A program made the translations under genes and the position numbers. A stretch of 64,000 nt of DNA. Origin: a virus. The DNA lies in the IMG/VR virus record IMGVR_UViG_3300024999_000004, positions 29,596 to 93,595 of that record. One strand, given 5' to 3'. The notes under the pieces were generated by a model, which was not told the DNA's origin, made no database searches, and worked only from the letters and a program-made list of their open reading frames with translations. Positions within the stretch are counted from its first letter, which is position 1. Every line of letters begins with the position of its first letter. Shown here piece after piece: positions 1-14,708 of this stretch.

Positions 1-449
1 TGGTCATTCTCCCTCAGCTTGGCCTCCATGCGCTCGGCAAACCAGAGGACGGAAGGACGTGGCTTCCGGGAAAGCACAGGCTCAGGGGTCCAGTGCTTCC
101 ATTGGACGGGCGGGCCTGCGGAGGGGGTGCTTACATTGGGGCGAGGTAAATCAGGAGCAGGGGTCCATGGCATCGTGGGCTCGGGACTCAAGGAATCCAT
201 GGCTCTTGGCTCGCTGTCTACAAGTGAAGCAACCCATTTGCACAGCAACGCTTCCGTGCGTTGAATTGCTCCGTCGCTTTCTTCGAGAACATCTTCTACA
301 ATCTGCTCTGCAATTTCTCTTGGTGAACACGTTTCCACTTCCTTTGCATCCGTGGCTCGGGGCTCAAGGGTCTGGAGGTATTCGTCCATCTCGTCCTTTG
401 AATACACCGCTGTGGTTTCTCTTGCATAGAAGGGCTCGGGTCTCTTCAT
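1..449 (-). CDS. Partial phage hypothetical protein (runs off left edge), not in the ORF track
   Basis: ATG at 449 overlaps the stop of the upstream ORF (ATGA). Frame is open to base 1: MKRPEPFY...VYSKDEMDEYLQ...RPSVLWFAERMEAKLREND. Confidence 0.65.
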   Translation of the reverse strand, partial: MKRPEPFYARETTAVYSKDEMDEYLQTLEPRATDAKEVETCSPREIAEQIVEDVLEESDGAIQRTEALLCKWVASLVDSEPRAMDSLSPEPTMPWTPAPDLPRPNVSTPSAGPPVQWKHWTPEPVLSRKPRPSVLWFAERMEAKLREND

Positions 450-964
450 TCGGGGGCTCCTTGGGTCTTGAGTGAGGCGCGGGCTCTGACACGGATATCT
501 TCGAGTTGCACTAAATAGGACTCTTCTGCTTCGTGCGTTGTCATGCTCGGATTTGATGGGGCGTGGATGTGGGCAAAGTATTCCAGTGCCTCCCGCATCC
601 GATGAATCCGGGATTCAAGGGGCTCCCTTTTTTCCCTGTCCTGCCCCTCCATTCTCATCCGCAAATCCATCATTTCACGTAACCTGCGCACCTGCTCTTT
701 CAGATTCACAATTTCGAGGCTGGCTTCGTGGTACTGCGTTTCGAATGACGGGCAACCAATCCTGCCCTCCCTTTCGTCGTATAAGCACTTTACCGTCTCC
801 CCCGGAAGAATAAAACCCGGGCCGTAGTCTCCGTGGTGCTTGCATATCTCACGGCAATAAGCACTTCCAAGCATCACTGTCCCTGTCACTCCTTGGGCCT
901 TGTGCGGGCAGGGGACAAGGCATCTGCCGTTGAGCATGTCGTACGGAACTGGATATTCGTTCAT
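446..964 (-). CDS. Hypothetical protein, Cys/His N-terminus plus coiled coil
   Basis: ATG 964 is coupled to the stop of 961..1278; AAGGAAG SD. Confidence 0.7.
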   Translation of the reverse strand: MNEYPVPYDMLNGRCLVPCPHKAQGVTGTVMLGSAYCREICKHHGDYGPGFILPGETVKCLYDEREGRIGCPSFETQYHEASLEIVNLKEQVRRLREMMDLRMRMEGQDREKREPLESRIHRMREALEYFAHIHAPSNPSMTTHEAEESYLVQLEDIRVRARASLKTQGAPE

Positions 965-1278
965 ATTTTCTTCCTTTGTACGTTGCTCATACAACCACGC
1001 ATATTTGCTCTAACCCACCACCACACGCTTCTGCCGCTCGACTCTATCAGCTTCGCGTTCTGCAGTAGCCATTCCCCGCGTTCTGCTGAAATCTTTTTTA
1101 CTCTGCGGAAACCGTTCCCTCTGAATAGCTTGCCGTTTGAATCCACGATGTTATGGCGCGGGGGCTCATGGGCGGTCAAGGATTCGTAAAAGCCCACGGC
1201 CCAATGGTCCTGTGGGTCGCCATCGACGTACTTTGTGGCGAGGACGTAATCGCCTTTCTGGAGATTAGGCGCGTTCAT
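961..1278 (-). CDS. Phage hypothetical protein
   Basis: GGAG SD; ATGA coupling at both ends; GDYVLATKY-DGDPQD-W motif. Confidence 0.75.
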   Translation of the reverse strand: MNAPNLQKGDYVLATKYVDGDPQDHWAVGFYESLTAHEPPRHNIVDSNGKLFRGNGFRRVKKISAERGEWLLQNAKLIESSGRSVWWWVRANMRGCMSNVQRKKI

Positions 1279-1472
1279 CCGAGGGCTCCTTGGCTCTTGC
1301 TGGTCAATTCATCCACAATGAAAGAAAGTTTGTGCTGGGGCTCGGGGGGTCCTTGAGGCGGGGAATCCGTGGCCACGGATTCAAAGGCCCGTTGGAGGCA
1401 GTCATTAATAGTGCGGGACTTCCCGTTCCTTCTTCCGAGGCAGAAAATACGTGATTCATTGGCTCCGTGCAT
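1275..1472 (-). CDS. Hypothetical protein
   Basis: AAGGAGCCACAGATG start cassette; coupled to the next gene. Confidence 0.55.
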   Translation of the reverse strand: MHGANESRIFCLGRRNGKSRTINDCLQRAFESVATDSPPQGPPEPQHKLSFIVDELTSKSQGALG

Positions 1473-1519
1473 CTGTGGCTCCTTGTGGCGTTGGGTCGGA
1501 GAATCCGGGCTCGGGGGCT

Positions 1520-1678
1520 TTATACATTCCCATCAAGCACCTTTTGAATTGCCTCAAAAATGGCGTTGTATTGCCCGACGGTAAGATTTGGCTCTCTTCT
1601 TTCCTCCATATTCTTTTTTGCTTCTTCGAATATCACCCGAGTCATTACGCGAATCTTTCGATTCAGATTACCTTCCAT
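1520..1678 (-). CDS. 52-aa hypothetical protein, first gene of the leftward unit (not in ORF track)
   Basis: AGGAG SD, directly downstream of the promoter at 1707-1735; MEGNLNRKIRV...GQYNAIFEAIQKVLDGNV. Confidence 0.65.
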   Translation of the reverse strand: MEGNLNRKIRVMTRVIFEEAKKNMEERREPNLTVGQYNAIFEAIQKVLDGNV

Positions 1679-1706
1679 CCTGTTACTCCTTGTCCTACTT
1701 TACTAT

Positions 1707-1735
1707 ATATTACCACATAAACCATTGCCTGTCAA
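1707..1735 (-). promoter_or_regulatory. sigma70-type promoter
   Basis: TTGACA-17bp-TAATAT with TG extension on the minus strand. Confidence 0.75.
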
Positions 1736-1867
1736 GTCCCTTCTGTCAGGAAAAGTGCACATACTCCTGACAAACGAATAAGCGGCCTGTCCTCCGTCTT
1801 CACGTACATGAAGTGTATAAAATGCTCAGACTGTTCCTAACTACGGAGGGGATGAATCCGGCCCCAC

Positions 1868-2085
1868 CTATAGCGTCGGTCCATACCCCCTCCCCTCCTA
1901 CGCTATAGGTAGCGCCCCGAGCCCTTGAACCTTCGCACTACAACACCATAGCTAGCGTATACCTATGTATAGTATGACCCTACGCTACATGTAGCGTAGG
2001 CCCCAGGTTCACTGAACCCATTCACCTAAATATCGGTTACTGAACCCATTCATTGAACTAGACTCACTGAACCCATTCACCTAAA
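1868..2085. repeat. Palindrome and direct-repeat block (candidate genome end, packaging site or origin)
   Basis: IR CCTATAGCGT/ACGCTATAGG; perfect 22-bp palindrome CCTACGCTACATGTAGCGTAGG at 1979-2000; ACTGAACCCATTCA at 2011, 2039 and 2066. Confidence 0.8.
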
Positions 2086-2143
2086 CAGCCCCCATGCGTC
2101 GCTTGATCCTCTAATAAATCGAATCGAATTCTCCTTTATTTAC

Positions 2144-2171
2144 TTGCGCTTTTCGCGGTATCGTGTATAAT
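2144..2171 (+). promoter_or_regulatory. Candidate early promoter
   Basis: TTGCGC-16bp-TATAAT upstream of the first rightward ORF. Confidence 0.5.
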
Positions 2172-2208
2172 GATTATAGGTGATTAGAGCTTACTTGGGG
2201 GTGACGAG

Positions 2209-2382
2209 ATGAACCAAAATACAGAGTTGACTATATCGCAATTGCGTTTTTCGGAAACCTGGCTTGCGCAGTCTTTGCGCGCAGTAACTCCGGTATATTT
2301 CGAGCACGAAAAAGCCGCCTTTGAACGGTTGACGTGCGAGCTTGCGCAGGTACGTGCAGAGATTGCAACGCGGAGGGCGTAA
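2209..2382 (+). CDS. 57-aa early hypothetical protein (not in ORF track)
   Basis: GGGGGTG SD; MNQNTELTISQLRF...; abuts the next ORF. Confidence 0.55.
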   Translation: MNQNTELTISQLRFSETWLAQSLRAVTPVYFEHEKAAFERLTCELAQVRAEIATRRA

Positions 2383-2383
2383 A

Positions 2384-2572
2384 ATGCAACACACTAACCC
2401 GACCATAGCCCCCGCGATGCAATCCGCCATTGACCGCCTTCGTTCCGCTCTTGCACACGGTGCGAGCATGGACCGCGACTATGCGGACGAATGGGCGCGC
2501 ATGAGGCGAGCGAGCGCGCGGAATAACGGAATTGCGTACCGTAGTGCGCGCATAGCGCAAGAGGCGGACTAA
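2384..2572 (+). CDS. Early hypothetical protein
   Basis: GGAGG SD; tight packing. Confidence 0.6.
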   Translation: MQHTNPTIAPAMQSAIDRLRSALAHGASMDRDYADEWARMRRASARNNGIAYRSARIAQEAD

Positions 2573-2734
2573 ATGGAATACGCTATAAGCATGATCGAAT
2601 CGCACGGGTACCGCGTAGTGTCGCTAGATGCCTTGATATTCGCGGTACTCCATCGCGGACTATTCTATAATGCGATGGACCTTTATTCTGATTTATCCGC
2701 AAGCTTGCGCGATGGAATTATTGAAGAGAGCTAG
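2573..2734 (+). CDS. 53-aa early hypothetical protein (not in ORF track)
   Basis: Starts immediately after the previous stop; MEYAISMIESHGY... Confidence 0.5.
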   Translation: MEYAISMIESHGYRVVSLDALIFAVLHRGLFYNAMDLYSDLSASLRDGIIEES

Positions 2735-2789
2735 GGACCATGGGCGCGCCGTATGGCGTCGCCTTAGCTTGAGCATAGGAAGGCATAAA

Positions 2790-3074
2790 ATGACTTACTT
2801 TGTAGGCATGATGCAAACGCATAACAAACGGTGGAACAACTTGACGCGAGAACTTGAAACCGTTCCGGAATACCTTATCGATTGCATGGGCTCCGATAGC
2901 TATACAACGGTTGACGGGAGACTCTCCCGCGACCATGCGATCATGGAAGCGCATAGCGTAGCGGCGAAGCGCGGAAGGCCTGCCTTCTTTGTTATCAAGG
3001 CTTCCAGCTTCCATAATTTTCTTGACTTGCGGGATTCAGGGAAAGGGAAATTCATCCGGACGGTGACAAGATGA
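2790..3074 (+). CDS. Early hypothetical protein
   Basis: AGGAAGG SD; MGSDS...VDGRLS motif. Confidence 0.65.
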   Translation: MTYFVGMMQTHNKRWNNLTRELETVPEYLIDCMGSDSYTTVDGRLSRDHAIMEAHSVAAKRGRPAFFVIKASSFHNFLDLRDSGKGKFIRTVTR

Positions 3075-3313
3075 AACCGCTCATCCGAGATGGAATCTCC
3101 ATGATTCAATCGAATTCCGGCTTGATCAAAATCAAATTCCCCGATAACCGCGAAGCATCCCTCCTTTCCAACGGTCGCCGCCTCTCATGGGATACCTTCG
3201 ACGGCTTCCTCCGCGCGGCCCATCGTCCGGAAGGATCAAAGGGGAAAGTATTCGGGAAGAGCGAACGGTACGCGGAAAACGTGAGCGCAGGAATCAGGGA
3301 GGCGCGGAGATGA
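3071..3313 (+). CDS. Early hypothetical protein
   Basis: ATGA coupling at both ends. Confidence 0.6.
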   Translation: MKPLIRDGISMIQSNSGLIKIKFPDNREASLLSNGRRLSWDTFDGFLRAAHRPEGSKGKVFGKSERYAENVSAGIREARR

Positions 3314-3681
3314 TGAACCTTGAAGCAAAGGCCCTTTTCGATCAATTCGGACGCAAACTTGAAACAGGGAAGCGGGAATTTTACCGCAAGATCCGCGCCA
3401 TAAAGGAAGGCCATATCAACGCGGCAGACTTCCCCGCTACTTTCGCCTGGGAAAGGTCCTGCTATCGCGGACCGGCATATAATGAGGTAGCGATGCACGC
3501 ACTTTCCGAATTGCTTGAATGCTACGGCGTAGAATCCATAGACTCAAGCGAAACAAAAAACGGAGAGTATATTGACTACCTGAACGTAGGCGATCCTTAC
3601 ATACCGACCGTTGTAAGGTGTACCGCATGGACCCATGAATTCAGACTCGCAAAAGGAGGATACGCGGAATTCGTGAAATAG
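3310..3681 (+). CDS. Early hypothetical protein
   Basis: GGAGG SD; LLECYGVE...YLNVGDPY motif. Confidence 0.7.
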   Translation: MMNLEAKALFDQFGRKLETGKREFYRKIRAIKEGHINAADFPATFAWERSCYRGPAYNEVAMHALSELLECYGVESIDSSETKNGEYIDYLNVGDPYIPTVVRCTAWTHEFRLAKGGYAEFVK

Positions 3682-3779
3682 TGCGCTTGCGGGATTCTCT
3701 TTATGGTTTATACTATAAAGGGAATGATGCAATCGAACTATGAGCGATTGAAGTCTAAGCGAGAAGGAAGGTATTGAAT

Positions 3780-4154
3780 ATGAAGGCAAAAAGAGTCTAT
3801 GACTTCAGGGGCTTTGAAGGTCCGGACGCTTCGCTTGAAATATCACTTTTTGAGTATGGCCTCGCTTGGAAATGCACAAGCAAAACAAAGCAAGATTATT
3901 GCTTTGTATACGGCGTGCGCGCAAGCGATAAGGGAGAATATGACCGCTTCACCTATGCTACTCTTTCCCTTGACGACTGGAAGTCAATTGTCAATGAATC
4001 ATGGTTCAAGGCGGAATCGGTAGGAAATTACTTCGAACGTTCCGCCGAAACCTTGATAGAAGGATTCCCTGAATCTTTGCATGAGGGCGTGATATACCAT
4101 GGAACGGAGAATATTTTCGGTTCTTGCTACCATGAAGGGTTTGTAATAGTATGA
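3780..4154 (+). CDS. Early hypothetical protein
   Basis: GAAGG SD; DASLEISLFEYG motif. Confidence 0.7.
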   Translation: MKAKRVYDFRGFEGPDASLEISLFEYGLAWKCTSKTKQDYCFVYGVRASDKGEYDRFTYATLSLDDWKSIVNESWFKAESVGNYFERSAETLIEGFPESLHEGVIYHGTENIFGSCYHEGFVIV

Positions 4155-4330
4155 ACGCGCTGGCGAAATTCGAAGCGGAACCGTGTATCGGCGTACCGCT
4201 GGAATGGCTTCAACTGATAAAAGCCCACGCGCTTGAGCAAACACGGATTGCATTGATATCGCGCGAGCTGGACGATATGATCGATAGCGCGTGCCTTGAC
4301 AGCGACGAAGATTGAAAGGAGGGTAGAACC

Positions 4331-4624
4331 ATGAAAAGACAATTCAAGCCAGTACCTTGCAAGTATGGTGCACCTATGGGAAGGGATTCCTTCGGAGACC
4401 CGCGCAAAGTATCGGACAAGCGAATTTCACTTTTCCGCGTCCGTATGGTTGACGGAGACTATGACGACGGAGGCGCGTATTGGGGTGGATATCCTTCCTC
4501 TCCGCTCTACTGCGCAAGGACCGGCGACGGTTCAACCTATCGGGACTTCGCGCGCGCGAAAAGCCGGAAGGAAGCGGCGGAGATAATGGAAATTCCGGAC
4601 TCCAAGCTTAAAATAAGGGCATAG
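4331..4624 (+). CDS. Early hypothetical protein
   Basis: AGGAGG SD; YGAPMGR...GDYDDGGAYWG motif. Confidence 0.75.
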   Translation: MKRQFKPVPCKYGAPMGRDSFGDPRKVSDKRISLFRVRMVDGDYDDGGAYWGGYPSSPLYCARTGDGSTYRDFARAKSRKEAAEIMEIPDSKLKIRA

Positions 4625-4710
4625 AGGGCTTCCCTTTCCTTCCTTGTATAAAGGAAGGATGAGGAAACGCTTTATGCGCTTCATATCCATTTACTAAGGA
4701 AGGTACTATC

Positions 4711-4953
4711 ATGCGTTCCAAACGTTCCGACCTGATTCGCCGCGCCTTGCGCCTCCGATCCTCGGCCCTCCGCGCCTCCGACCCTCTCATGTGCGCGCTC
4801 CTGCTACGGCAAGCGAACGCATGTTTGCTTAAATCCGAGCGGCTTGACTCGATACTTCCGAGGAATCCGGTACGCGACTGCCGGGCGGCTATCATCGAAG
4901 GTCCCTATCGTGCCATGGCGCGGGCTTCAAGGTTCGCGGGAATAGAAGACTGA
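4711..4953 (+). CDS. Basic early hypothetical protein
   Basis: AAGGAAGG SD. Confidence 0.55.
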   Translation: MRSKRSDLIRRALRLRSSALRASDPLMCALLLRQANACLLKSERLDSILPRNPVRDCRAAIIEGPYRAMARASRFAGIED

Positions 4954-4969
4954 AGGAAAGGAAGGAAAC

Positions 4970-5362
4970 ATGAAAGCGGATATATCGAAGACTCAAGGAA
5001 TGGATAAGTTTTCCGTAGGAAACTATCGGGAAAAAGAATTGTACTACGGCTACAAATGCGTAGACAAGAAGGACGAGCGCGCAATCATCGATCTCCGCCT
5101 ATACGCTTCCCGGTCCGATAAGTACGGACGCAAATATGCGGTTATCTGGACGAAAGACGGAGCGGGGAAAGGATACGCGGGCGGTTACGGGTATGACAAG
5201 AAAAGCGCAGCCGTAAGCTCCGCGATAGAAGACGCGGGGATAAGCTTGAGCGAAAGGATCGACGGGGTAGGGGAAGATGCAATCCGCTCCGCGCTTTCCG
5301 CGATCATGGAAGCATACGGCTATACGCCGGAGGCTTGGATTCTCGTCGAATTCTACGCGTAG
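4970..5362 (+). CDS. Early hypothetical protein
   Basis: SD; GYAGGYGYDKKSAA motif. Confidence 0.75.
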   Translation: MKADISKTQGMDKFSVGNYREKELYYGYKCVDKKDERAIIDLRLYASRSDKYGRKYAVIWTKDGAGKGYAGGYGYDKKSAAVSSAIEDAGISLSERIDGVGEDAIRSALSAIMEAYGYTPEAWILVEFYA

Positions 5363-5449
5363 AACGCTTCGCCTGCCTTCCAGTACCTATTGGAAGGCGG
5401 ATCGAATCGCTTTATACACGATTCAATATATTCTCGCAAGGAGCGTACT

Positions 5450-5833
5450 ATGGAAGCAAGGAAAGCAATCGAACAGATCCGGAATGAAGCCTATCACAAG
5501 GAACAAAAGAAGGAAGCCCGCAAAGCCCTGAAGGCCAAAATCGGCTTCATCCCCAAAACCATCGATATTCAAGGCAAGGAATGGTTCGATAAAACGTACG
5601 GCAATTCTTACTTCTCCGCCGTCGTAACGCTCGATTATCTCCTTCCTACGCAAAAAACCATCGTCCTGCCCTTCCAGTACGGCTACGGGGATTCCTACAC
5701 GCAAGCGGCAGCCGAGGCCCTGGGGCTCAAGGCTCCCCTGTCATACTCCGCAAGGGAGGCGGGGATCATGCTGCGCGCGAATATCGAATGCGGATGCCTC
5801 CAGAGGGATGTCAAGAGGTGGGGGAGGGAATGA
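5450..5833 (+). CDS. Early hypothetical protein
   Basis: AAGGAG SD; EWFDKTYGNSYFS...PFQYGYG motif. Confidence 0.75.
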   Translation: MEARKAIEQIRNEAYHKEQKKEARKALKAKIGFIPKTIDIQGKEWFDKTYGNSYFSAVVTLDYLLPTQKTIVLPFQYGYGDSYTQAAAEALGLKAPLSYSAREAGIMLRANIECGCLQRDVKRWGRE

Positions 5834-6255
5834 AGGAAGATCCCCGCGCAAAATTCAAGGAAGAATTCGACAACGAATGGAAGGCCGAAATATTCTCTCC
5901 ATACGAGGATATCCCCCTCCTTTACTCTCCCGATAACCTGGAGCGCTTCAAGGAGCGTGTGAAAGTAGCTGCGCTCCTCCGCTATCGGCCTGACGATGAG
6001 GGAGTCCCGATCAACTGGTTCGCAGTCATTCAGGATTTAGGGATCGATTATACGTACATCATAAGGACACCGGAATTCATGGTCCAAAGGATCGAGGGCT
6101 ACATGGACCGGCTATATGAATCGGAAGGAGCCTTGATCCGGCTATACAACGGCGGGGCTATAGATATCATGGGGCTTGATTCCGTCAATGCTCGGATTCT
6201 CCCGGAGATTCTACGGGAGATAGCTTTGTACGAGGAAAGGAGCGTATCAAGATGA
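5830..6255 (+). CDS. Early hypothetical protein
   Basis: GGAGGG SD; ATGA coupling. Confidence 0.7.
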   Translation: MKEDPRAKFKEEFDNEWKAEIFSPYEDIPLLYSPDNLERFKERVKVAALLRYRPDDEGVPINWFAVIQDLGIDYTYIIRTPEFMVQRIEGYMDRLYESEGALIRLYNGGAIDIMGLDSVNARILPEILREIALYEERSVSR

Positions 6256-6467
6256 AGGAAGCCCGCTGGAAAACTGCAGTGAAGGAAGAGGCGAAGAAAG
6301 GAAAGGAGGGCTCTTTTATTCCGGCAATAAAGGAGCACAGAAAATTATGGGCAAGAATCCATGAATCCTGCCCCCTGATTCCTATGCCGCTACTATCAAA
6401 AAGCAAGGAAACCATAGAACGATACGCCCTGAAGCAAGGGCTTGTGTTTGTGCGGTTCAGGAGCTAG
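6252..6467 (+). CDS. Early hypothetical protein
   Basis: AGGAG SD; coupling. Confidence 0.55.
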   Translation: MKEARWKTAVKEEAKKGKEGSFIPAIKEHRKLWARIHESCPLIPMPLLSKSKETIERYALKQGLVFVRFRS

Positions 6468-6490
6468 ACCCTACTAAGGAGCACAAGGAA

Positions 6491-6604
6491 ATGAAGAATT
6501 CCATCGTAGTAGACGGGAAGAAGCGAGCTTGTCTTATGAAGCAAGGCAACAAATTCAAGGAACTATTCGACAAAGAATGGCAAGGAGAGTGCTATAATGA
6601 ATAA
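6491..6604 (+). CDS. 37-aa chimeric mini-ORF built from the starts of two neighbouring genes
   Basis: First 35 nt identical to 6907-6941; KFKELFDKEW resembles KFKEEFDNEW of the 5830 gene. Confidence 0.5.
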   Translation: MKNSIVVDGKKRACLMKQGNKFKELFDKEWQGECYNE

Positions 6605-6812
6605 GGCTTATGTTATTCGAAACAATAAAGGATATATACGTATCTACGAAGATGCGGGATGCTTTGAAGTAGTAGAGGATATCTCTGATGCTACATTCTA
6701 TGACTCCGAAACCTTTGCGTATGAGGGGCTGCTCAAACTAGGAAACGCCCTTCGCAGTTTTTCCGTTGAATTCTACCTAATACAATGCGTGGCTATAGTC
6801 TACGCGCGATAA
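6597..6812 (+). CDS. Early hypothetical protein
   Basis: AGGAG SD. Confidence 0.6.
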   Translation: MNKAYVIRNNKGYIRIYEDAGCFEVVEDISDATFYDSETFAYEGLLKLGNALRSFSVEFYLIQCVAIVYAR

Positions 6813-6906
6813 CCACAAGGAGGCCGCAGCGACAATATGCACAGTCATAAAATCAGCTTATAGGCGGCGAATTCACCCACAAGAATACAAGAAGGAGCAT
6901 ATCAAG

Positions 6907-7203
6907 ATGAAGAATTCCATCGTAGTAGACGGGAAGAAGCGGACATGCGTCATTTACGACAACGGAGGGCCGGACGCGCCCGACGGCTCCATAGACCGCT
7001 ATACCGTCATCCTCCGGGCCTATCGGGACAAGGGGCTAGGATGCATGGTATATCCCTACCTTGCGTGCTCGGAATCCCCCTTCCAGTCATTCGGGCAGAA
7101 TGGGGATTCATACGAATCAATCCGTGGTAAGCATCTAGGAAAGCGCGTCACCTTCGAAGACGCTCCAGAAGACGTGAAGGCGTTCATACTTCAGGAATTC
7201 TAG
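6907..7203 (+). CDS. Early hypothetical protein
   Basis: AAGGAG SD; YDNGG...DRYTV...HLGKRV motif. Confidence 0.75.
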   Translation: MKNSIVVDGKKRTCVIYDNGGPDAPDGSIDRYTVILRAYRDKGLGCMVYPYLACSESPFQSFGQNGDSYESIRGKHLGKRVTFEDAPEDVKAFILQEF

Positions 7204-7252
7204 CGCCCTCCCCTGCATAGGGAGGGAATCAAAGGATCAAGGAAGGAAAACG

Positions 7253-7564
7253 ATGGAAGCGACAAAACTAGCGGGAATACTCGCAGAACATGCAGCATGG
7301 TTGAAAGACCTCACGAAAGGAGAACGCGCGAACCTCCGGGGCGCGAACCTCCGGGGCGCGAACCTCCGGGGCGCGAACCTCGATTTTTCCTGTTTCCCCC
7401 TCTGGTGCGGGGGGACAAGATTCAAGGCGGGTGACAAGTTGATCATGCAGGTTCTGGCGCATCTTTGCTCCTGGGAAGTATCAGAGGAGGCGAAGGAAGA
7501 ACTCGACAAAGTAAGGGAGTATGCGAAAAAGTCGCATAGAGCGGAGGAATGCGGTATCCTCTAG
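7253..7564 (+). CDS. Pentapeptide-repeat protein
   Basis: (ANLRG)x3 encoded by the 15-bp tandem repeat GCGAACCTCCGGGGC, followed by LDFSCFPLWCG. Confidence 0.85.
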   Translation: MEATKLAGILAEHAAWLKDLTKGERANLRGANLRGANLRGANLDFSCFPLWCGGTRFKAGDKLIMQVLAHLCSWEVSEEAKEELDKVREYAKKSHRAEECGIL

Positions 7565-7595
7565 CCCGCGCGGCTTAATAAGGAGAAAACCTTAT

Positions 7596-8003
7596 ATGGA
7601 TCTAGCTATAGGCTACTTATTGTTCCTCGCATTCGTCCCGCAAACAGAAAACGCAACCTTCCATCCTGTCTACGGGGGCTTTGAACAAAGCATTACAGAA
7701 CCCGCGTTCGTAGCATCCATGGGCCTTAAGTTCACTCTAGGAAGATTCACGCTCTCCCCTACCATAGAAACGTACACAATGAAAAGCAAGGAATCTCCGT
7801 TTTTCAACCCCTTCCGCTCGGACTATGAAATCAGGGCGGAATTCCGGCTCTCCGATAAGGACGCGCCAACGCAAGTAACGGCGGGCGCATGGCATGAATG
7901 CGTGCATCCCGTGGACTCCGGGGACCTCCCCTCCGTTGTCAACAGATACGCGGGAGGGGAAACGCGATTTTATCTCAAGATTCAAGGGCTCACGGGTCCC
8001 TAG
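7596..8003 (+). CDS. Putative exported or beta-strand-rich envelope protein
   Basis: AAGGAG SD; hydrophobic N-terminus; alternating hydrophobic strands. Confidence 0.55.
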   Translation: MDLAIGYLLFLAFVPQTENATFHPVYGGFEQSITEPAFVASMGLKFTLGRFTLSPTIETYTMKSKESPFFNPFRSDYEIRAEFRLSDKDAPTQVTAGAWHECVHPVDSGDLPSVVNRYAGGETRFYLKIQGLTGP

Positions 8004-8100
8004 GAGGCCGCAGCGACAATATGCACAGTATATAGAAGGAAGTTGATCCAACTCACGCCTATAGGCCCGAAATTGCCTCCCTGGGCGGCGACTTCGCCCA

Positions 8101-8248
8101 TAAAAGACCCCGCGCATGGGGATAAAAGACCCCGCGCATGGGGATAAAAGACCCCGCGCATGGGGATAAAAGACCCCGCGCAAAGGGCAAAAGACCCCGC
8201 GCATGGGGATAAAAGACCCCGCGCAAAGGGCAAAAGACCCTATACGGG
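8101..8248. repeat. Tandem array of seven 21-22 bp hairpin units (T/C)AAAAGACCCCGCGCA(TGGGGA/AAGGG)
   Basis: Units start at 8101, 8123, 8145, 8167, 8188, 8210 and 8231; no spacers. Confidence 0.95.
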
Positions 8249-8271
8249 AGTACAAGAAGGAGCACAGACAA

Positions 8272-8790
8272 ATGAAATTCGAAGAAGGCAAGAGCTACAA
8301 AATAATAAAAAGTGCGACGAATCCCCCCGGCCCTCCTGTCAGTCTACACGACGGCTCACCTCATCTCTGCACCAAAGCCGTACCCGAAAGTGCGAACGTA
8401 CACGCAAGCTTCGATTGCGACGAATCCCCGGCCCTTATGACGATCTACACGCCGGAGGATATGGCGGACTTTCAGGAGGTGGCCACCGCCCGCAACGGAG
8501 TATTCATGGAAGCTTCCTACTTGGAAGCAGGCAACGAAAGCAACAAATTATTCGGGGTAGATGCGAACCACCTGAAGGACAAAACCATCGAAGTCCTCCG
8601 CATAGGGGAAGGAGAAAACACGGAAACGGCCGTCCTGATGGCCATAAGGAGCGGGGTCCTCACGTCCCGGGATCTTGCGGCCTTCACGGCGTATACGATC
8701 AGCGAAGCCTACGGAAAGGCTCAGATGAGGGAAGCCGCCCCGGATTCGCTCACGGCCCTCATGGAAGCCCTGAAGGGATATCGAGGATGA
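8272..8790 (+). CDS. Early hypothetical protein
   Basis: AAGGAG SD after the repeat array. Confidence 0.7.
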   Translation: MKFEEGKSYKIIKSATNPPGPPVSLHDGSPHLCTKAVPESANVHASFDCDESPALMTIYTPEDMADFQEVATARNGVFMEASYLEAGNESNKLFGVDANHLKDKTIEVLRIGEGENTETAVLMAIRSGVLTSRDLAAFTAYTISEAYGKAQMREAAPDSLTALMEALKGYRG

Positions 8791-9083
8791 AAACCACGGA
8801 AGCAAGGATATTCTGCGGCAGAGATGCCGAAGGCCCTATCATCATGGTCGGGGGGACGAAGGAAAAAATCTGCGGCATAGACGTGATTCAATACTTCCAG
8901 AAGCCTCCCTACAAGGAGGCTGCGAAGCATACAAAGTATGTATGCTGGGAAGGAAGAATCCGGACGGATATCGTCCCGGGAACCATGCTGGAGGAATCAA
9001 CGGAAGACTGCGCAGACCTGATCGAAAGGTTCTTCCCCTACGCCACAATAAAATACGTCACCTTGGAGGAGGTGCTGCAATAG
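8787..9083 (+). CDS. Early hypothetical protein, last of the cluster
   Basis: ATGA coupling. Confidence 0.65.
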   Translation: MKTTEARIFCGRDAEGPIIMVGGTKEKICGIDVIQYFQKPPYKEAAKHTKYVCWEGRIRTDIVPGTMLEESTEDCADLIERFFPYATIKYVTLEEVLQ

Positions 9084-9096
9084 GTACAGGGAATCA

Positions 9097-9143
9097 GAGG
9101 CCCCGGAGGCAAGGAATCCATGAATCCGGGGCCTCCATTTTAA
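9097..9143 (+). terminator. Terminator-like hairpin closing the early cluster
   Basis: GAGGCCCCGGA...TCCGGGGCCTC followed by CATTTTAA. Confidence 0.6.
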
Positions 9144-9323
9144 TACAAAATCAAGGATAACTTGGCATGAAAACCCTCGAACGAATTTTTACGATTTTTT
9201 ATTTTTTCTTCGCGTATAGAAGGTGTAAGTGTATGATTTTTCATACGCCTGACGATATTTCGACATTCATCGAAATCTAAATATAGAAAAATTCATCGGT
9301 ATGGACATTTTGGAGATAAAAGT

Positions 9324-10291
9324 TAAGTCCTTATATAGAAACAAGTTACGTGAGATTTTGGCGGAAAAATGCATAAAATGAGTTTATTTTAAAGTCATAC
9401 AGGGTAAGGAGTTACGCTAAGTTTTTCGTACATATAGAAAATAATATACTGTAAGTCCTTACTGGATAAGGAATTAAGAAAACATTACAATCATTATAAT
9501 TATAATGTTCACATACAGTGACGAAAAACGTAACTCTTTACTGGATAAGGAATTACGTTTTTCTTTGGTGAAAAAATAATTTACTTTTCTGGCAAGAGTG
9601 GTGTAACTCTTTACTATGCAAGGAATTATTTTACACCGGAATCTGGGTTTTTGGCGCATTTTGCGTGGACGCTAATTCCTTTCTATGTAAGGAGTTATGC
9701 ATAGGCACTAAAAATTCCTATCTTTTCCCCAAGATATGCGTAGTTTATACACCAAATTCGGAAACGACCTATGTAAATCCTTACAGGGAAAGGAAATATT
9801 CGTTTGTGTTTTATGCATAAAATATACAGAAAATAGGAAGGTTTGCACTGAATGAGCAAGAGTCAGGGGAGCATAAGAACTCGGGTTCAAAGTAAAGCTA
9901 CACCTAACAAGGAGTTATGAAAAAGAGAGTCCGGGGGTCCAGAGGCAGAAATTCAAAGAATACGGGAAAAACGCATACAATTATGCAGTGAGTGGAGATG
10001 AAGAAAAATAAAATTCGGGGCTCGGGGCTCGGGGGTAGCAAGAATCGTACCAAGCGGGAATCTTAGACAAGACTAACAATGAAATAACTCTTTATGTAGC
10101 AAGGATGTGGGGGCCCTATAGGGAGGGTTTTCAATTATTTTTCTTTTTATTTATATTTTATTACCAAATATGAACATTTCTGAAAAAAGCAAAACATTAT
10201 AATTGTAATGTTTTGAAAAAAGTTTTGATTTGGTGAAAAGATATAAATAAACATAATTTTTCGCTGTAATTCGTGGCTATGTATAGAGTTA
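9324..10291. repeat. Ten dispersed 25-bp imperfect palindromes TAAnTCCTT-N7-AAGGAnTTA
   Basis: Copies start at 9324, 9390, 9452, 9531, 9604, 9673, 9774, 9893, 10085 and 10267 in an AT-rich non-coding region. Confidence 0.9.
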
Positions 10292-10476
10292 AGGTGTTTT
10301 TCTGTTGTTTTTGTTTTCCCTTCTAATGCCTTTTGGCGGAAAAATAGACGTTTTGTCGTATGCATTTTGGAGCCCCGAGCCCCGAGCCCCGAGCCCCGAG
10401 CCCCGAGCCCCGCCAACCAGTAGTCAAGAGCCCCGAGCCCCGAGCCCCGCCCACCAGTATTCAAGAGCCCCCGAGC
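10016..10476. repeat. Divergent GAGCCCC heptamer arrays
   Basis: Minus-oriented copies at 10016-10034; plus-oriented 6+3+1 copies at 10370-10476 separated by a repeated GCC(A/C)ACCAGTA(G/T)TCAA linker. Confidence 0.95.
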
Positions 10477-10493
10477 TAAAAACTTAAAACTTC

Positions 10494-10522
10494 TTGACAA
10501 AAAATAAATTAAAGAGTATATT
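10494..10522 (+). promoter_or_regulatory. sigma70 promoter
   Basis: TTGACA-17-TATATT. Confidence 0.8.
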
Positions 10523-10549
10523 ATTTAAGTATTAATTACACCGCGTTTG

Positions 10550-10750
10550 ATGGAAGCCAAGATGCACGAAGGCAGAAAAGAAGTTAAGGTATTGAAAGTT
10601 CCGGAGGGCGATGATTTTGTTCTCGGCTTGCCGCGTTACTTCGTCCGGGACCTGCACAACCGGGGAGTGGAGTATGTACGTTTCACTGTGAAAGGGGCAG
10701 TCATAACCATCGAGCCAATGAACCCCGGATTCCTTGCTCCCTCTCATTGA
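10550..10750 (+). CDS. AbrB/MazE-like swapped-hairpin DNA-binding protein
   Basis: KVxKVPEG..FVLGLP...VRFTVKG.VITIEP pattern. Confidence 0.6.
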   Translation: MEAKMHEGRKEVKVLKVPEGDDFVLGLPRYFVRDLHNRGVEYVRFTVKGAVITIEPMNPGFLAPSH

Positions 10751-10762
10751 TGAGGGCATTAA

Positions 10763-10996
10763 ATGATCAATTTTCACAGTGACTCTCTGGGGGTAGACGG
10801 GACAGTAGACAAGACCGTCAAGATCCCGGAAGGCCGCAGCAAGCAGTTTGTCCTCTCCCTTCCCGTAGCTGCGGTAGACGCCATGAGAGACCTTGGAGCC
10901 AAGAAGGTCAGTGTTATTGTGCTGAAGGAAGGCGGCATACTCATTGTCCCCGTGAATCCTCCCATAAACCATAACCCCTATAAGTTTCCTTCCTAG
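10763..10996 (+). CDS. AbrB/MazE-like protein, paralog of the preceding gene
   Basis: KTVKIPEG...FVLSLP...GGILIVP. Confidence 0.6.
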   Translation: MINFHSDSLGVDGTVDKTVKIPEGRSKQFVLSLPVAAVDAMRDLGAKKVSVIVLKEGGILIVPVNPPINHNPYKFPS

Positions 10997-11011
10997 CACG
11001 ATAGATATTCC

Positions 11012-11040
11012 TTGACATAACATCTATTGTATGATAAGAT
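11012..11040 (+). promoter_or_regulatory. sigma70 promoter
   Basis: TTGACA-17-TAAGAT with TGn extension. Confidence 0.8.
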
Positions 11041-11077
11041 AGCCATATATTCCTTGTAAGCCCAGGAGGCTACTACA

Positions 11078-12253
11078 ATGAGCGTGCCCGCAACGAAAGA
11101 TATTTCTATTGTCAAGACAATCCTTTCCCACGGAGGGGACTGTGGATGTTTTCCTTGTGTTGAGTGTCCTTTGTCCCAACCAGAGGGCGAATGCCCCCGT
11201 GAAGGTGCTGATGACGACACTCTAAAGCTCGCGCAGGAGTGGCTGAAGAAGCACTCGCCCTCTTCCATTGTCGAGGTCGTAATCGCGCAGGAGGGGGAGT
11301 GCCTTGGGTTTTCTTGTTTCTCCTGCCCTTTGGAGGGCGAATGCGAACTAACTGACGCTTCCTCTTTCTCTGCGGCACTGAAGTGGATGGAGGAAAATTC
11401 GCCTTCCCCCCGCGCGGGCGTCAGCAGCTGGACGAACAACCAAGGCGAAGTCTTCCATATAGGAGACGAAGTTACAGGAGCGGCCTCCCCCGGAATCAGA
11501 GGGCGTATTCATTGTCAGAGCCACGCGCCGGATTTGGTTGTCGTTGTCCTCAGCGGGGATACTGCCCGGGGGTGGGGGAAAAGCCACAGCGACTTCCCGA
11601 AGGATCTCCCTCCTGAAGCAAAGTGCTGGAATGTCGCGGCGGAGTGTTTACGCAAAGCGCCTGCTGTTCTCTCCGGAGTAGAGGGATTCCGCGACAGCCT
11701 CGGAACTCCTATTGCTATCGGAGCCCGGATTCTCTGCTCCGATGCATCCGCTGCCTCCGCAAAGGCGGGGGTGGAAATCCATACCTTTGTGGGGATGCTT
11801 CCGGACGGAAGATACAAGGAAGATCGGGATTTTGGGTGGAGGTATTGCGTTGCAGTCTCCACCCCTCCGGTGGAGGGCGAGGGCTCAGAATTCAAGCCCG
11901 GGGATTTCGTGAGAAGCGAAGACTACCCTAACTTGAGGGGCTATATTCACTGTATGAAAGCAGACGGTGCTTATATTGTCATCCGCACCGACGGGGAGGG
12001 GTGGGACAAGAGCACGGAAGCCCTGACACAGGATCTCCCGGAGGGGACGAAATGCTGGAAGGTGAGTGCGGGGAGTTTAAGGAAAGCTCCTGCTTCGGAT
12101 TATACCTCCCGAGGAGTAGGAGGGTCGATGCACGCGCAACTGCTTGCCGGAGGGGAGCGAATAACTCTTGTTTGTCGCCCTTCTCCTACTCCTCTTCTTT
12201 CTACTACTCAGTCTTTTGACGAAATCCGGCTGCAGCTGCTCAGGGGGATGTAG
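11078..12253 (+). CDS. Modular protein: two Cys-rich repeats plus SH3/KOW-like GW-K...LPEGTKCW domains
   Basis: AGGAGG SD; internal repeats; C-terminus FDEIRLQLLRGM. Confidence 0.75.
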   Translation: MSVPATKDISIVKTILSHGGDCGCFPCVECPLSQPEGECPREGADDDTLKLAQEWLKKHSPSSIVEVVIAQEGECLGFSCFSCPLEGECELTDASSFSAALKWMEENSPSPRAGVSSWTNNQGEVFHIGDEVTGAASPGIRGRIHCQSHAPDLVVVVLSGDTARGWGKSHSDFPKDLPPEAKCWNVAAECLRKAPAVLSGVEGFRDSLGTPIAIGARILCSDASAASAKAGVEIHTFVGMLPDGRYKEDRDFGWRYCVAVSTPPVEGEGSEFKPGDFVRSEDYPNLRGYIHCMKADGAYIVIRTDGEGWDKSTEALTQDLPEGTKCWKVSAGSLRKAPASDYTSRGVGGSMHAQLLAGGERITLVCRPSPTPLLSTTQSFDEIRLQLLRGM

Positions 12254-12330
12254 AGCATTCTTGCCTGTGGGGTGTTTCCTGCTCGGTGGGGCGAAGTCGG
12301 TGACTACAGGCGAAAATTTGGAGGATTCAA

Positions 12331-12891
12331 ATGGGCTGGAAGAACACTTCAGGGTATTGTTTCAACATAGGCGATATTGTGGAGGACGCAGAAGATCCCT
12401 TGGTCAACGGGAAGGTTGTGGCTGTAGACTCCTCGGGGAATAATCTTGTCATCATTCGTTCCGATGGGAGGGGGTGGCCCAAGGAAGATCACGATTACAC
12501 GCAGCATCTCCCGGAGGGAACGAAGTGCTGGCATGTTTTGTTGGATGACTTGAGGCCACACAGTACGGAAGCTTCCGGATTCAAGGTCGGAGACTTCATC
12601 TGCGACAAGAGCAGCAATAATGTCATTGGGCGTATTCTCCTTGTCGATGAGGTCGGGGATTATCTGACAGAACGTGCCGAGCACCTGCCGAAAGGAACGA
12701 AGTGCTGGGGGGTACTGAAGAAGAACGCAGCCATGAGTACGCGGCCATGGCAGGAGATGTCCTTTGCAGGCCACGTCGGGAGCGAGCATATTATCCCCCT
12801 CCTGCGGCGTACCCAAGCAGAAATGAGAAGCGCCCGCGTAGTGGCGGACACCTTTGATAGCATCCGCCTGCAACTTCTCCGTGATTTGTAA
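12331..12891 (+). CDS. Paralog of the 11078 protein (LPxGTKCW domains)
   Basis: GGAGG SD; C-terminus FDSIRLQLLRDL. Confidence 0.75.
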   Translation: MGWKNTSGYCFNIGDIVEDAEDPLVNGKVVAVDSSGNNLVIIRSDGRGWPKEDHDYTQHLPEGTKCWHVLLDDLRPHSTEASGFKVGDFICDKSSNNVIGRILLVDEVGDYLTERAEHLPKGTKCWGVLKKNAAMSTRPWQEMSFAGHVGSEHIIPLLRRTQAEMRSARVVADTFDSIRLQLLRDL

Positions 12892-12918
12892 TAGCCTACC
12901 GTTCATTATAAATAGTAC

Positions 12919-12947
12919 TTGACATTACATACAATACATGGTATAGT
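12919..12947 (+). promoter_or_regulatory. sigma70 promoter
   Basis: TTGACA-17-TATAGT with TG extension. Confidence 0.85.
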
Positions 12948-13020
12948 GAATCCGGCATCCTGTATGGGCGTGCCTTAGTTTTGTACCGCCCCTGACCTAG
13001 GGTAGGGGCATGGAGCCAAC

Positions 13021-13341
13021 ATGAAAATGATCGAGTTCATCCGCAAGACCACCGCCGAAGTCATTGACGACATGAAAGCCCCGTTTCGCATGAGCATGAT
13101 CTCCCGGACCTTCGATTCCCTGATCGACAAGGCCGAGGAGACCCGCCTGGACGTGGAAACGAGCCTCTTGGACGAGCGGAAGGCGCTGTCGCTCTCCTCC
13201 GACGAGATCGAGGCGAAGGCGCACATCAAGCAGATCGTCGAGCTTCAGATGAGGCTCGCGGCTGCGGAGGCGAATGCCAAGGCCGTGGGGGCCGAGAAGG
13301 TCTTCGAGTTCGGGGATGCTCCCGCTGGCGGGCAGAAGTAG
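13021..13341 (+). CDS. Helical/coiled-coil hypothetical protein
   Basis: GGAG SD; strong GC3 codon bias. Confidence 0.75.
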   Translation: MKMIEFIRKTTAEVIDDMKAPFRMSMISRTFDSLIDKAEETRLDVETSLLDERKALSLSSDEIEAKAHIKQIVELQMRLAAAEANAKAVGAEKVFEFGDAPAGGQK

Positions 13342-13408
13342 GGGGCAATTCGGGGCTCCTGCCTGTTTTATTTCTTCCGCTGTATCTCTTGACTTGAAAG
13401 GAGTAAAA

Positions 13409-13816
13409 GTGAGCTATTTCAAGGAAGAATTCGAGGATGCTGTCGGTATCAAGTGGACCAAACGCATCATGGTTGCGGTGGCCGTCCTCGCGGTGTACAT
13501 TGCCATCTCTTTCTTTTCCGGCATCTGGCCCTTCTCTGTTGCGTCGGGCCTTGCCAAGGCCGTGGTGAACGAGAAGGCCATCATCCACAACTACGAATGG
13601 TTCTACGACCAATTCTCTTCCATTGTCGCGCAGGAGGCCAACGTCGCCGCCATGGAAGGAACCCCTGAGCAGCCGCCGATGATCATGGTCCTGAACAATG
13701 CAATTGCCGAGTACAACAGCAAATCGCGTATGGCTATGACGCGAACCCTTTGGAAGGCGGACGACCTTCCCTACCAGATCCCGTTCTATACCCGCACTAC
13801 AAGGAGCCCTGAATGA
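13409..13816 (+). CDS. Membrane-anchored hypothetical protein
   Basis: AAGGAG SD with GTG start; one TM; NYEWF...YN motif. Confidence 0.7.
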   Translation: MSYFKEEFEDAVGIKWTKRIMVAVAVLAVYIAISFFSGIWPFSVASGLAKAVVNEKAIIHNYEWFYDQFSSIVAQEANVAAMEGTPEQPPMIMVLNNAIAEYNSKSRMAMTRTLWKADDLPYQIPFYTRTTRSPE

Positions 13817-14367
13817 AGAAATTCTTCTCCCTCGTTTTGTTTGTCGTTTTCGCGCTTTCCCTCAACGTCTGCCCGGTTTTAGCCGAAGGCACCCCCGACG
13901 CCCGTTCTCAGGCTGTCACGCAATCACAGGCTACGGCACGTACTGCGAGGACAGCGGTACCCATTCCTCAGCTTTCCTACTTCCAGGAACTCAAGACGGC
14001 GGCGCGGTGGGCGGAAAGATGGGACAAGCCCTCGGTAGTCACCTTTGTCTACCTTGTGTCCTTCGGAAAGGTCTTGGGGTACTACGTTGCCGACGGAAAG
14101 CCTGCGTCCACGAGATCTTATATAACTCCGGAAAGCCACATTGGGGGCGGAGGTACGGCAGGGTACTATGAGGAATCCCTTCCTGATCTCGATGGCACCT
14201 ACGGAGAGAACAATGTCGGCATACGATTCTTCACCGCAGAGGGAGTTGCTTCCGAGTGGGGCGGAAACGGGATGTGTTATTTGTACACCGACGCTCCCGC
14301 AGACTTCGGGTACGAGGTTCCCCGGCTTTATAAGAAGGCAGGCGCAGGAGCTGCGGGGAAGAAGTAG
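13813..14367 (+). CDS. Secreted hypothetical protein
   Basis: Signal peptide; YVYL/GYY/GK.S/PD.DGTYG motifs; coupled to the upstream gene. Confidence 0.75.
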   Translation: MKKFFSLVLFVVFALSLNVCPVLAEGTPDARSQAVTQSQATARTARTAVPIPQLSYFQELKTAARWAERWDKPSVVTFVYLVSFGKVLGYYVADGKPASTRSYITPESHIGGGGTAGYYEESLPDLDGTYGENNVGIRFFTAEGVASEWGGNGMCYLYTDAPADFGYEVPRLYKKAGAGAAGKK

Positions 14368-14441
14368 AAAGGCAGGCCCCGGCAGGATATGTCGGGGCGA
14401 AGTCGGCGACTACAGGCGGATTTTTTGAAGGAGGCCTTCCT

Positions 14442-14708
14442 ATGTTGTTCGAAATATCCGATGAGGACATCAGGACCCTTGAGGAGGCTTCCTTTGAACT
14501 TGCTTGGGACACAGCCTACGGGAACGTGGGGGCACGCACAGCCATGAGGTCACTTGACGCCCTCGCACGAAGGATGCGTGAAGCCCAAAGAGAAACCGTT
14601 CGTGGCTCCTCCCGAGCCCGGATTCTTGGAGCCGTCGCATACTTGCTCCTTGCCATGGCCGGTATCCTCGGCGCTTGCTGGTTATATACTCTATCTCTTC
14701 CGAAGTAG
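14442..14708 (+). CDS. Hypothetical protein with C-terminal TM
   Basis: AGGAGG SD. Confidence 0.6.
   Translation: MLFEISDEDIRTLEEASFELAWDTAYGNVGARTAMRSLDALARRMREAQRETVRGSSRARILGAVAYLLLAMAGILGACWLYTLSLPK

Follow-up and report, generated by a model that had tools for sequence, protein, structure and literature searches.

The 64,000-nucleotide (nt) window analysed in this work, i.e., bases 29596-93595 of the 93,595-bp IMG/VR virus record IMGVR_UViG_3300024999_000004 (positions are those of the window unless stated otherwise), contains a compositional island extending from about 2300 to about 8200, in which the four trinucleotides CAG, CTG, CAC and GTG (CAS/STG) occur at 0.45-0.47 of their density in the rest of the genome. 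The island spans the promoter-proximal 19 open reading frames (ORFs) of a rightward early operon of the host-polymerase type. It is established that the bias acts on the DNA itself and that it is confined to the promoter-proximal 6 kb of this operon. The best explanation that we can offer, which we hold tentatively and at somewhat less than an even chance, is a selection acting on the early DNA that is first exposed in the cell, the reader of the words being left unspecified.

Extent and controls of the deficit

The manual counts of an earlier note on this DNA, from which the idea of a trinucleotide depletion came, are reproduced by a recount: the segment 4921-5400 holds five CAG/CTG and no CAC/GTG, exactly as reported, and the segment 16021-16500 holds 15 and six, where about 16 and about six had been given. 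The depletion persists in a full count. Indeed, the density of CAG/CTG per kb is 15.9 in the block 2209-9135 and 28.8 in the whole genome, that of CAC/GTG 12.6 and 24.1. Only 37 of the 1552 windows of 480 bp have five or fewer CAG/CTG; 34 of these fall in 2266-7846, and the other three are located at about 10000 (two windows) and at 59026. Cumulative-sum change points, together with per-gene z-scores, place the limits of the island at about 2300 and about 8200. Within these limits the four words sum to 149, as against 325 +/- 32 in the other windows of 5.9 kb, of which 291 were counted and none had fewer than 280; the density ratios between the island and the rest are very similar for the single words (CAG 0.47, CTG 0.46, CAC 0.45 and GTG 0.45), and the deficit is equal on both strands. 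The earlier note had considered the whole block 2209-9135 as depleted; this is true for about 2300-8200 but not for the last two ORFs (8272-9083), whose z-scores are -0.9 and 0.0. The word content of the leftward genes is normal, too. Moreover, the deficit is graded, being deepest in the first 3 kb past the promoter (22, 27 and 14 words per kb, against 55) and reaching 27-32 per kb later on.

Amino-acid content does not explain the deficit. When the proteins of the block were recoded with the codon usage found in the remaining genome, 289 +/- 12 words were obtained, against the 167 observed in the coding sequence (z -9.9), so that the depletion survives an amino-acid control of the kind suggested in the earlier note. 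The permutation of the block's own synonymous codons gave 223 +/- 8 words against the same 167 (z -6.7), and the excess deficit that remains after this shuffling implies that the codon junctions also avoid the words. The four words are deficient in all three codon phases, the dinucleotide shift is alike at codon positions 1-2, 2-3 and 3-1, and the 836 non-coding bases lying within the island are as depleted as its genes, with 22.7 words per kb against about 53-55 elsewhere. The amino-acid-controlled z-score for the four words is -1.6 or lower in 17 of the 19 ORFs of 2209-8003. These 19 ORFs are unrelated and not paralogs, and an expansion of paralogs was therefore rejected as the cause of the island.

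A broader compositional shift

The trinucleotide depletion is real, but it represents only one facet, and not the whole, of a broad compositional shift. The island contains fewer CA/TG and AC/GT steps than the remaining genome (all CA/TG at 0.8), CCA/TGG and ACA/TGT are low as well, and CCAC/GTGG, CCAA/TTGG and ACAG/CTGT fall to about 0.25-0.3; on the coding strand GT stands at 0.57 and TGT at 0.30. The self-complementary steps are raised (CG 1.29-fold, TA 1.31-fold, AT 1.29-fold and GC 1.21-fold), as are CGCG (3.4-fold), GCGC (3.1-fold) and GCGCG (5.5-fold), the values for GCGC/CGCG within the limits 2300..8200 being 3.5-3.9-fold, and CTAG is 3.65-3.7 times denser than elsewhere. This pattern fits the avoidance of CA:TG and AC:GT, of which CG, TA, AT and GC would be the one-transition replacements. 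When the island is compared with its own lower-order composition, CAG/CTG still stand at 0.67 (z -5.4) and CCAA/TTGG at 0.34.

Two explanations based on motifs were tried and rejected. The first one, a single motif, was discarded on finding that no word of five or more bases is left after the lower-order composition is taken into account. The second one, a polar motif resembling chi, was discarded on finding that words of the GCGCG type have no strand bias outside tandem arrays.

Avoidance of restriction sites

The genome as a whole is purged of many restriction sites. The observed versus expected counts are 0/33 for CCGCGG, 0/22 for GGATCC, 0/19 for GAGCTC, 0/18 for CTCGAG, 0/17 for GGCGCC, 0/15 for TCGCGA, 3/23 for AGATCT, 66/171 for CCWGG, 1/39 for CCTNAGG, 0/14 for GGTNACC and 3/21 for CCA-N5-TGG; GTCGAC, GACGTC and GCCGGC are likewise absent (10-33 occurrences are expected for the 6-bp sites with zero counts). 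The same palindromes are missing from the island, where CCGCGG, GGATCC, GCATGC, TCATGA and others have no occurrence, against 2-5 expected from its own composition (5.2 in the case of CCGCGG). As a class, six-bp palindromes stand at 0.72 of the Markov expectation in the island versus 0.64 in the rest, their density being 16 versus 8.3 per kb. Since type II sites are purged genome-wide and the island is no more purged than the remainder, the later-entering DNA is not exempt from type II enzymes; besides, the shared missing palindromes imply that the island and the remainder have been exposed to one and the same restriction pressure. Among the interrupted palindromes built from CAC, CAG or CCA half-sites, CCA-N5-TGG is the only one to be avoided, and its avoidance is genome-wide. 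The avoided type II sites provide a ready-made list of the restriction enzymes of the host population.

Type I sites were counted on both strands for 37 of the 38 recognition sequences of Table 1 of Loenen et al. (PMC3874165); MpuII (GA-N7-TAY) was left out as it was not countable. The island harbours 42 such sites, versus 36.6 +/- 4.6 in windows of equal size, on a panel that is mostly enterobacterial and may not be that of the host. The avoidance of half-sites proposed in the earlier note is thus not borne out by these mostly enterobacterial sites. The same panel gives 33 sites in the first-step-transfer (FST) DNA of phage T5, versus 50.1 +/- 7.2, and three in the corresponding island of the Wifcevirus phage ECML-117, versus 11.6 +/- 3.3, with no other window as low in either genome. 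Hence, the principle of type I site depletion holds in T5 and ECML-117, in agreement with experiments on T5-like phages (PMC10644984).

Anatomy of the early block and its flanks

The island is embedded in a divergent arrangement. On the minus strand, a consensus scan revealed a sigma-70-like promoter at 1707..1735 (TTGACA, a 17-nt spacer and TAATAT, with TG before the second hexamer), which heads the gene run leading to terminase, portal, capsid and tail. Between the two directions of transcription lies a non-coding repeat stretch (about 1679-2208). Its part 1840..2100 holds inverted repeats (1860-1916) and, further on, three direct repeats of 22 bp (2009-2085), with a palindrome near 1980-2000. 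The 1.9-kb palindrome block that the earlier note had placed here shrinks to this stretch, since most of it is occupied by five minus-strand ORFs with good ribosome-binding sites. A candidate early promoter on the plus strand (2144..2171) might be represented by TTGCGC, a weak -35 element, followed after 16 nt by a perfect TATAAT at 2166-2171; it was recognised by reading the sequence and was not listed by the scan.

Downstream of it, 21 ORFs were called, close to the 20 or so previously suggested. The first nineteen (2209..8003, plus strand) are small, encoding 37-145 amino acids (aa), and nearly all of them have no Pfam or PHROG function. One of them, at 7253..7564 (plus strand), codes for a pentapeptide-repeat protein (Pfam PF00805, E 7e-8) and includes a 15-bp tandem repeat that is expanded in the related contig L085, described below. 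The right edge of the island is marked by about 6.5 tandem copies of a 22-bp CCCC...GGGG hairpin unit (8102..8253, plus strand), mostly absent from L085; each unit scores as terminator-like on the minus strand. The last two ORFs of the operon follow (8272..9083, plus strand; 172 and 98 aa), with normal word content, and the operon ends with a terminator-like structure at 9097..9135 (plus strand), i.e., a 19-nt inverted repeat and then a T-run, beyond which the palindrome array begins; terminator and array had both been recognised in the earlier note. Two further repeats were observed within the block. An exact 28-nt repeat starting AGGAGGCCGC is found at 6818-6845 and 8002-8029, behind two of the ORFs, and is present in L085 as well; moreover, the nearly identical starts of two ORFs are duplicated at 6476-6525 and 6892-6941.

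The region from 9140 to 10490 is non-coding, 1.3 kb long and AT-rich (37% GC), and contains at least six spaced 26-nt palindromic sites, an AT-rich core and opposed arrays of the heptamer GAGCCCC at 10015-10034 and 10370-10476. It is 82% conserved in L085 and, judging from these repeats, looks like an origin or operator region. The DnaA box TTWTNCACA has no match in 9100-10600 and a single one in the whole genome. A polarity of the GAGCCCC heptamer was also considered, and none was found genome-wide. A strong sigma-70-like promoter on the plus strand (10494..10522; TTGACA, 17 nt, TATATT) heads the next gene block.

Concerning the proteins of the block, five of the 21 ORFs matched PHROGs of unknown function at E <=1e-5, and one is the pentapeptide-repeat protein. 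The ORF at 5450..5833 (plus strand, 127 aa) belongs to a widespread family of phage proteins of about 100 aa (phrog_6246), with 922 homologs at about 50% identity and 150 records from cultured phages. Its AlphaFold model is confident, with a predicted local distance difference test (pLDDT) score of 94.7, and no solved structure was clearly matched by it: the best matches (Foldseek E 0.013, VIA Z 4.2) correspond to a generic three-strand/helix arrangement. The earlier note had regarded the ORFs of the block as candidate anti-defence or host-takeover proteins. Pfam and PHROG searches gave no anti-defence function for any of them, so that this label derives from their position and size. Homologs of the T5 pre-early proteins A1, A2 and dmp were also not found, either by tblastn of all the proteins against T5 or by PHROG and Pfam searches on the block.

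Genome setting

A minus-strand ORF of more than 1410 aa, probably coding for a tail fibre or another large virion protein, spans both contig ends (bases 1-4232 of the genome plus 63665-64000 of the window), which shows that the record is a circularised assembly. The 104-bp repeat found at the contig ends falls within this ORF and must therefore be an assembly overlap.

According to a crude gene map complemented with PHROG and Pfam matches, a late operon on the minus strand runs leftward from about 1678, beginning with small genes and continuing with the large terminase, portal, capsid, tape measure and tail genes. The plus-strand gene run extends from 2209 to about 58700, with the early block first and the replication genes after it; hence, the block represents the first part of the rightward transcription unit, located at a divergent promoter region. 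The replication part encodes a primase, helicases, a family A polymerase, RtcB, a PurA-like enzyme, three tRNAs and an N6-adenine methylase. The PurA-like adenylosuccinate synthetase (21800-22969) matches phrog_1211 and keeps GDEGKG at its N-terminus. The methylase, of the beta class, is accompanied by a second methylase-like ORF and by a radical SAM protein (the three lying at 50790-51533, 43541-44122 and 26600-27562), and its nearest solved relatives are DpnA, CcrM and M.RsrI. A modification of the phage DNA was considered as the reader of the words and rejected, as no finding connects these three proteins with CAS/STG.

Two other proteins of this part of the genome were noticed. The first one, of 731 aa (16487-18682), matches phrog_1735 and has no Pfam match; it shares about 50% identity with proteins from many large phages, those of Bacillus, Salmonella, Klebsiella and Caulobacter among them, and its homologues, found in 543 phage records and 107 IMG/VR loci, make it unusually conserved for an uncharacterised phage protein. 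The second one is a primase-like ORF of 194 aa (14761-15345), a paralog of the N-terminus of the 568-aa primase (40882-42588); this short ORF is missing from the related contig L085.

No DNA relative of this phage was found among 50,697 phage records, nor was one found in IMG/VR using the 391-aa protein, P0002, the portal or the 28-nt repeat. The best matches of the terminase (44%) belong to 36-kb Vibrio phages; the large phages nearest by terminase, nickie and B1VFA, have neither a comparable island nor a portal match. A related contig obtained from a metagenome scan, L085, is 8,346 bp long and begins at position 7192 of the window; therefore, it covers the right edge of the island only. Its identity is 97% over 7192-8133; it lacks 8134-8786, and the identity is then 82%, 77%, 83%, 92% and 90% across 8787-15938. 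From this alignment, the right edge of the island is, in L085, apparently a recombination or an insertion/deletion junction.

Forces that might have shaped the island

That the early cassette carries either the mark of a DNA-level selection or an inherited signature is real, and the two readings are not mutually exclusive. According to the one that we tentatively prefer, the DNA of the island itself would be under selection against these words because in the cell this segment would be exposed and expressed before any other. The words might be read by a host defence or by a phage-made nuclease working at a time when the remaining genome is not yet at risk; the rise of CG, TA and CTAG might represent a by-product of synonymous replacement, and the island may travel among related phages as a cassette keeping its signature. 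Staged DNA entry is plausible but unproven. Selection on first-exposed DNA is favoured by the strand symmetry of the deficit, its gradient from the promoter end, the T5-like layout of the region and the likeness to two early regions located in terminal repeats, those of T5 and of the Wifcevirus phages.

Several observations weigh against this interpretation. The contig gives no position for the physical genome ends or for the order of entry, its 104-bp repeat being the assembly overlap mentioned above. The purge is only about two-fold, and about 150 copies of the four words remain; a thinning of this size gives no immunity to an enzyme cutting at a single trinucleotide, and it would matter only for readers that require two sites, a longer composite site or a certain density of sites. 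With its lower-order composition modelled, the island yields no outstanding word of five or more bases, nor is it depleted in the 37 published type I sites. Part of its similarity to T5 is due to CGC/GCG by themselves, and its correlation with the terminal repeats of My1, pVp-1 and SPO1 is weak (0.22-0.30, with 0.25-0.30 for My1 and pVp-1), as is that with the early region of T7. Furthermore, the last two genes of the operon and the small leftward genes are normal, while both operons of the T5 repeat are shifted. Finally, the junction at the right edge in L085 also fits plain mosaicism.

This last point introduces the idea that the island might be a mosaic cassette, i.e., a mobile accessory module of early genes keeping the signature of its source lineage, so that the shortage of the words would have no present function. 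The possibility deserves attention, even though we rate it below selection on first-exposed DNA and well short of an even chance. The dinucleotide signature of the island, which departs from that of the remainder in every codon phase, is a classic mark of imported DNA; almost all the ORFs are orphans; the last two genes of the operon are normal; the 97% identity with L085 over 7192-8133 gives way to 77-92% over 8787-15938, with the indel 8134-8786 exactly at the right edge; and one protein of the island has homologs at 87-90% identity in other samples and at about 50% in hundreds of unrelated phages. However, the island shares the specific banned 6-bp palindromes of the genome, so that the same restriction enzymes must have acted on any donor; the phage records and the IMG/VR searches yielded no donor with this signature; the deficit is graded from the promoter end; and the shift resembles that of terminal-repeat early regions of unrelated coliphages, which would be unexpected for an arbitrary foreign signature.

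A more specific form of the selection hypothesis assumes that very short words containing the CA:TG step, here CAS/STG, are recognised during the first minutes of infection by a DNA reader, and that this is either a widespread host defence or an A1-like phage nuclease degrading the host DNA. We regard this version as quite doubtful. If it was correct, then T5, the Wifcevirus phages and this siphovirus-like phage would have independently purged their first-exposed DNA, and the island would mark a T5-style leading segment outside the Demerecviridae.

The mechanism put forward in the earlier note, that is, a T5-type first-step-transfer segment placed in a long terminal repeat and purged of type I, type III or BREX half-sites in favour of early anti-defence proteins, appears improbable. 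It is in agreement with the T5-like layout, with a terminase distantly related to those of T5, My1 and pVp-1, with the depletion of published type I sites in the T5 FST DNA and in the ECML-117 island, and with the finding that CA/TG is present in 52% of the published type I half-sites, versus 34% expected (list in PMC3874165). Nevertheless, the 37-site panel is not depleted here, which, on a mostly enterobacterial panel that may not represent the systems of the host, weighs against the mechanism and does no more than that; homologs of A1, A2 and dmp are missing from the block, as are DnaA boxes from the repeat region; type II sites are purged genome-wide; and the contig gives no mapped genome ends.

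Lastly, a cause at the level of translation or mRNA, with the words falling as a side effect of an early codon set matched to the host tRNA pool or of the avoidance of RNA cleavage sites, is very improbable: it might account for the codon shift (CAA 71% vs 36%, GAA 74% vs 49%, CAT 68% vs 44%, GTA 43% vs 21% and GCG 43% vs 26%) and for a coding strand with an additional shortage of GT and TGT and with more A, but the deficit of the four words is equal on both strands, affects codon junctions, all phases and non-coding spacers, and the islands of the control phages are unlike their host, CAG/CTG being at 3 per kb in that of ECML-117, in contrast to the abundance of CTG and CAG in E. coli DNA.

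Comparison with known systems

T5-like and T7-like phages are known to lack restriction sites in their first-entering DNA. We found no paper in which trinucleotide or dinucleotide steps are described as purged from early or terminal-repeat DNA, nor any describing the compositional island of the T5 repeat or its paucity of type I sites. Should the purge be due to selection, the first-exposed DNA of uncultured phages, together with their immediate-early genes (which are probably anti-defence ones), could be recognised from composition alone, and the purge would point to a factor reading very short DNA words early in infection.

The most obvious term of comparison is represented by T5 and BF23 (Tequintavirus), with their terminal repeat of 10.2 kb. 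In T5-like phages, restriction, CRISPR and Ssp systems act only via sites in the first-entering DNA (PMC10644984), and Davison proposed that the T5 A1 nuclease cuts sites absent from this DNA (10.1101/866236). In the left terminal repeat of T5, two pre-early operons and a terminator are followed by the injection stop signal, which is non-coding and lies at 9140-10149 (10.1101/866236), and the early genes come after this signal; the repeat adjoins the terminase end of the late operon. The phage analysed here shares with T5 and BF23 the small orphan genes, the host-type promoters and the position next to the terminase end of the late operon; as in T5, these are followed by a terminator, a non-coding region of more than 1 kb with repeats and palindromes, and then early and replication genes, the region 9140-10490 occupying the place of the stop signal. 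The terminal repeat of T5 (record NC_005859, 1-10219) is itself a sharp compositional island: its 3-mer distance is 1.49 vs 0.91, dropping to 0.9 at the end of the repeat, and the strength of the island is alike in T5 and in this phage (1.49 vs 0.9). The T5 repeat is characterised by CG at 1.83-fold, CGC/GCG at 3.4-fold, GCGC at 6.6-fold, AGAG at 0.18-fold and CAG/CTG at 0.71-fold. Between the log-ratio shift vectors of this island and of the T5 FST DNA, r amounts to 0.49 (3-mers) and 0.43 (4-mers), whereas it does not exceed 0.18 and 0.27 for other segments. The shift of T5 is also found in the annotated terminal repeat of My1 and in the island adjacent to the terminase in pVp-1 (r 0.81-0.90), whereas the early regions of T7 and N4 show little or no such island. 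What is common to the T5-type repeats and to the island is mainly the enrichment in CpG and GCG; the deficit of CAC/GTG and ACA/TGT is this phage's own and is not found in T5, My1 or pVp-1.

The differences from T5 are also evident. This phage possesses a single shifted operon, whereas T5 has two in its repeat; it has no homologs of A1, A2 and dmp; no DnaA boxes occur in its repeat region, where the T5 type carries a conserved set; and type I sites, depleted in the T5 FST DNA, are not depleted in its island. In its gene content this phage does not resemble T5, for a tblastn of all the proteins against T5 gave only the terminase, the polymerase and two weak matches outside the block. The terminase is 29% identical to that of T5 (E 6e-23) and the polymerase 22%. 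The terminase shows 29-33% identity with those of T5, My1 and pVp-1 taken together (E 6e-23 to 9e-28) and does not match those of T7, SPO1 and N4, which suggests that it might be a distant relative of the Demerecviridae terminases.

Some features of the island recall morons and the lambda b region, since its orphan genes form a block with sharp boundaries, distinguished by a dinucleotide and codon signature of its own, and since a recombination junction lies at one edge in a relative. In contrast with foreign accessory modules, its signature is not an arbitrary one and matches the first-entering regions of other phages; in contrast with a typical acquired island, its profile of restriction avoidance is the same as that of the resident genome (CCGCGG, GGATCC, GCATGC and TCATGA being absent).

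The closest compositional resemblance is with Wifcevirus. In ECML-117 (JX128258), the segment at about 6.3-8.3 kb has CA/TG at 39 per kb vs about 148, CAG/CTG at 3 vs about 33 and CpG at 109 vs about 57, with CTAG present. This DNA occurs twice in the 72-kb records of Ro157lw and SP13, where it lies at 1270-3269 from the start, and a terminal repeat of 3.7 kb has been published for WFC and WFH (PMC6563267); from its position and its two copies, the ECML-117 island is located inside this terminal repeat. The shift vectors of the two islands correlate with r 0.67, 0.62 and 0.54 for k = 2, 3 and 4, the maximum of the null being 0.23. Like the Wifcevirus island (ECML-117, WFC and Ro157lw), the one described here is poor in CAG/CTG, CAC/GTG, CCA/TGG and ACA/TGT, rich in CG, TA, CGC/GCG and CTA/TAG, tolerates CTAG and consists of small ORFs heading the early genes. 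Unlike it, the purge is weaker (CA/TG at 0.8 vs about 0.26) and spares CAA, TCA, GCA and CAT, the island is 6 kb long and not 2 kb, and there is an extra deficit of AC/GT together with a strand-specific one of GT. Moreover, the Wifcevirus island sits in a terminal repeat about 1 kb from the physical end, whereas ours is known from a circularised contig alone. The Wifcevirus phages are unrelated to this phage, there being no terminase match between them.

The control analyses add a measurable scarcity of published type I sites in the T5 FST DNA and in the Wifcevirus island, which is not shared by this island, and the cultured coliphages appear a better place than this phage for finding the mechanism. 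To these systems, the island described in this work adds an unrelated, non-coliphage example with a different set of words, i.e., CAS/STG and not all CA/TG.

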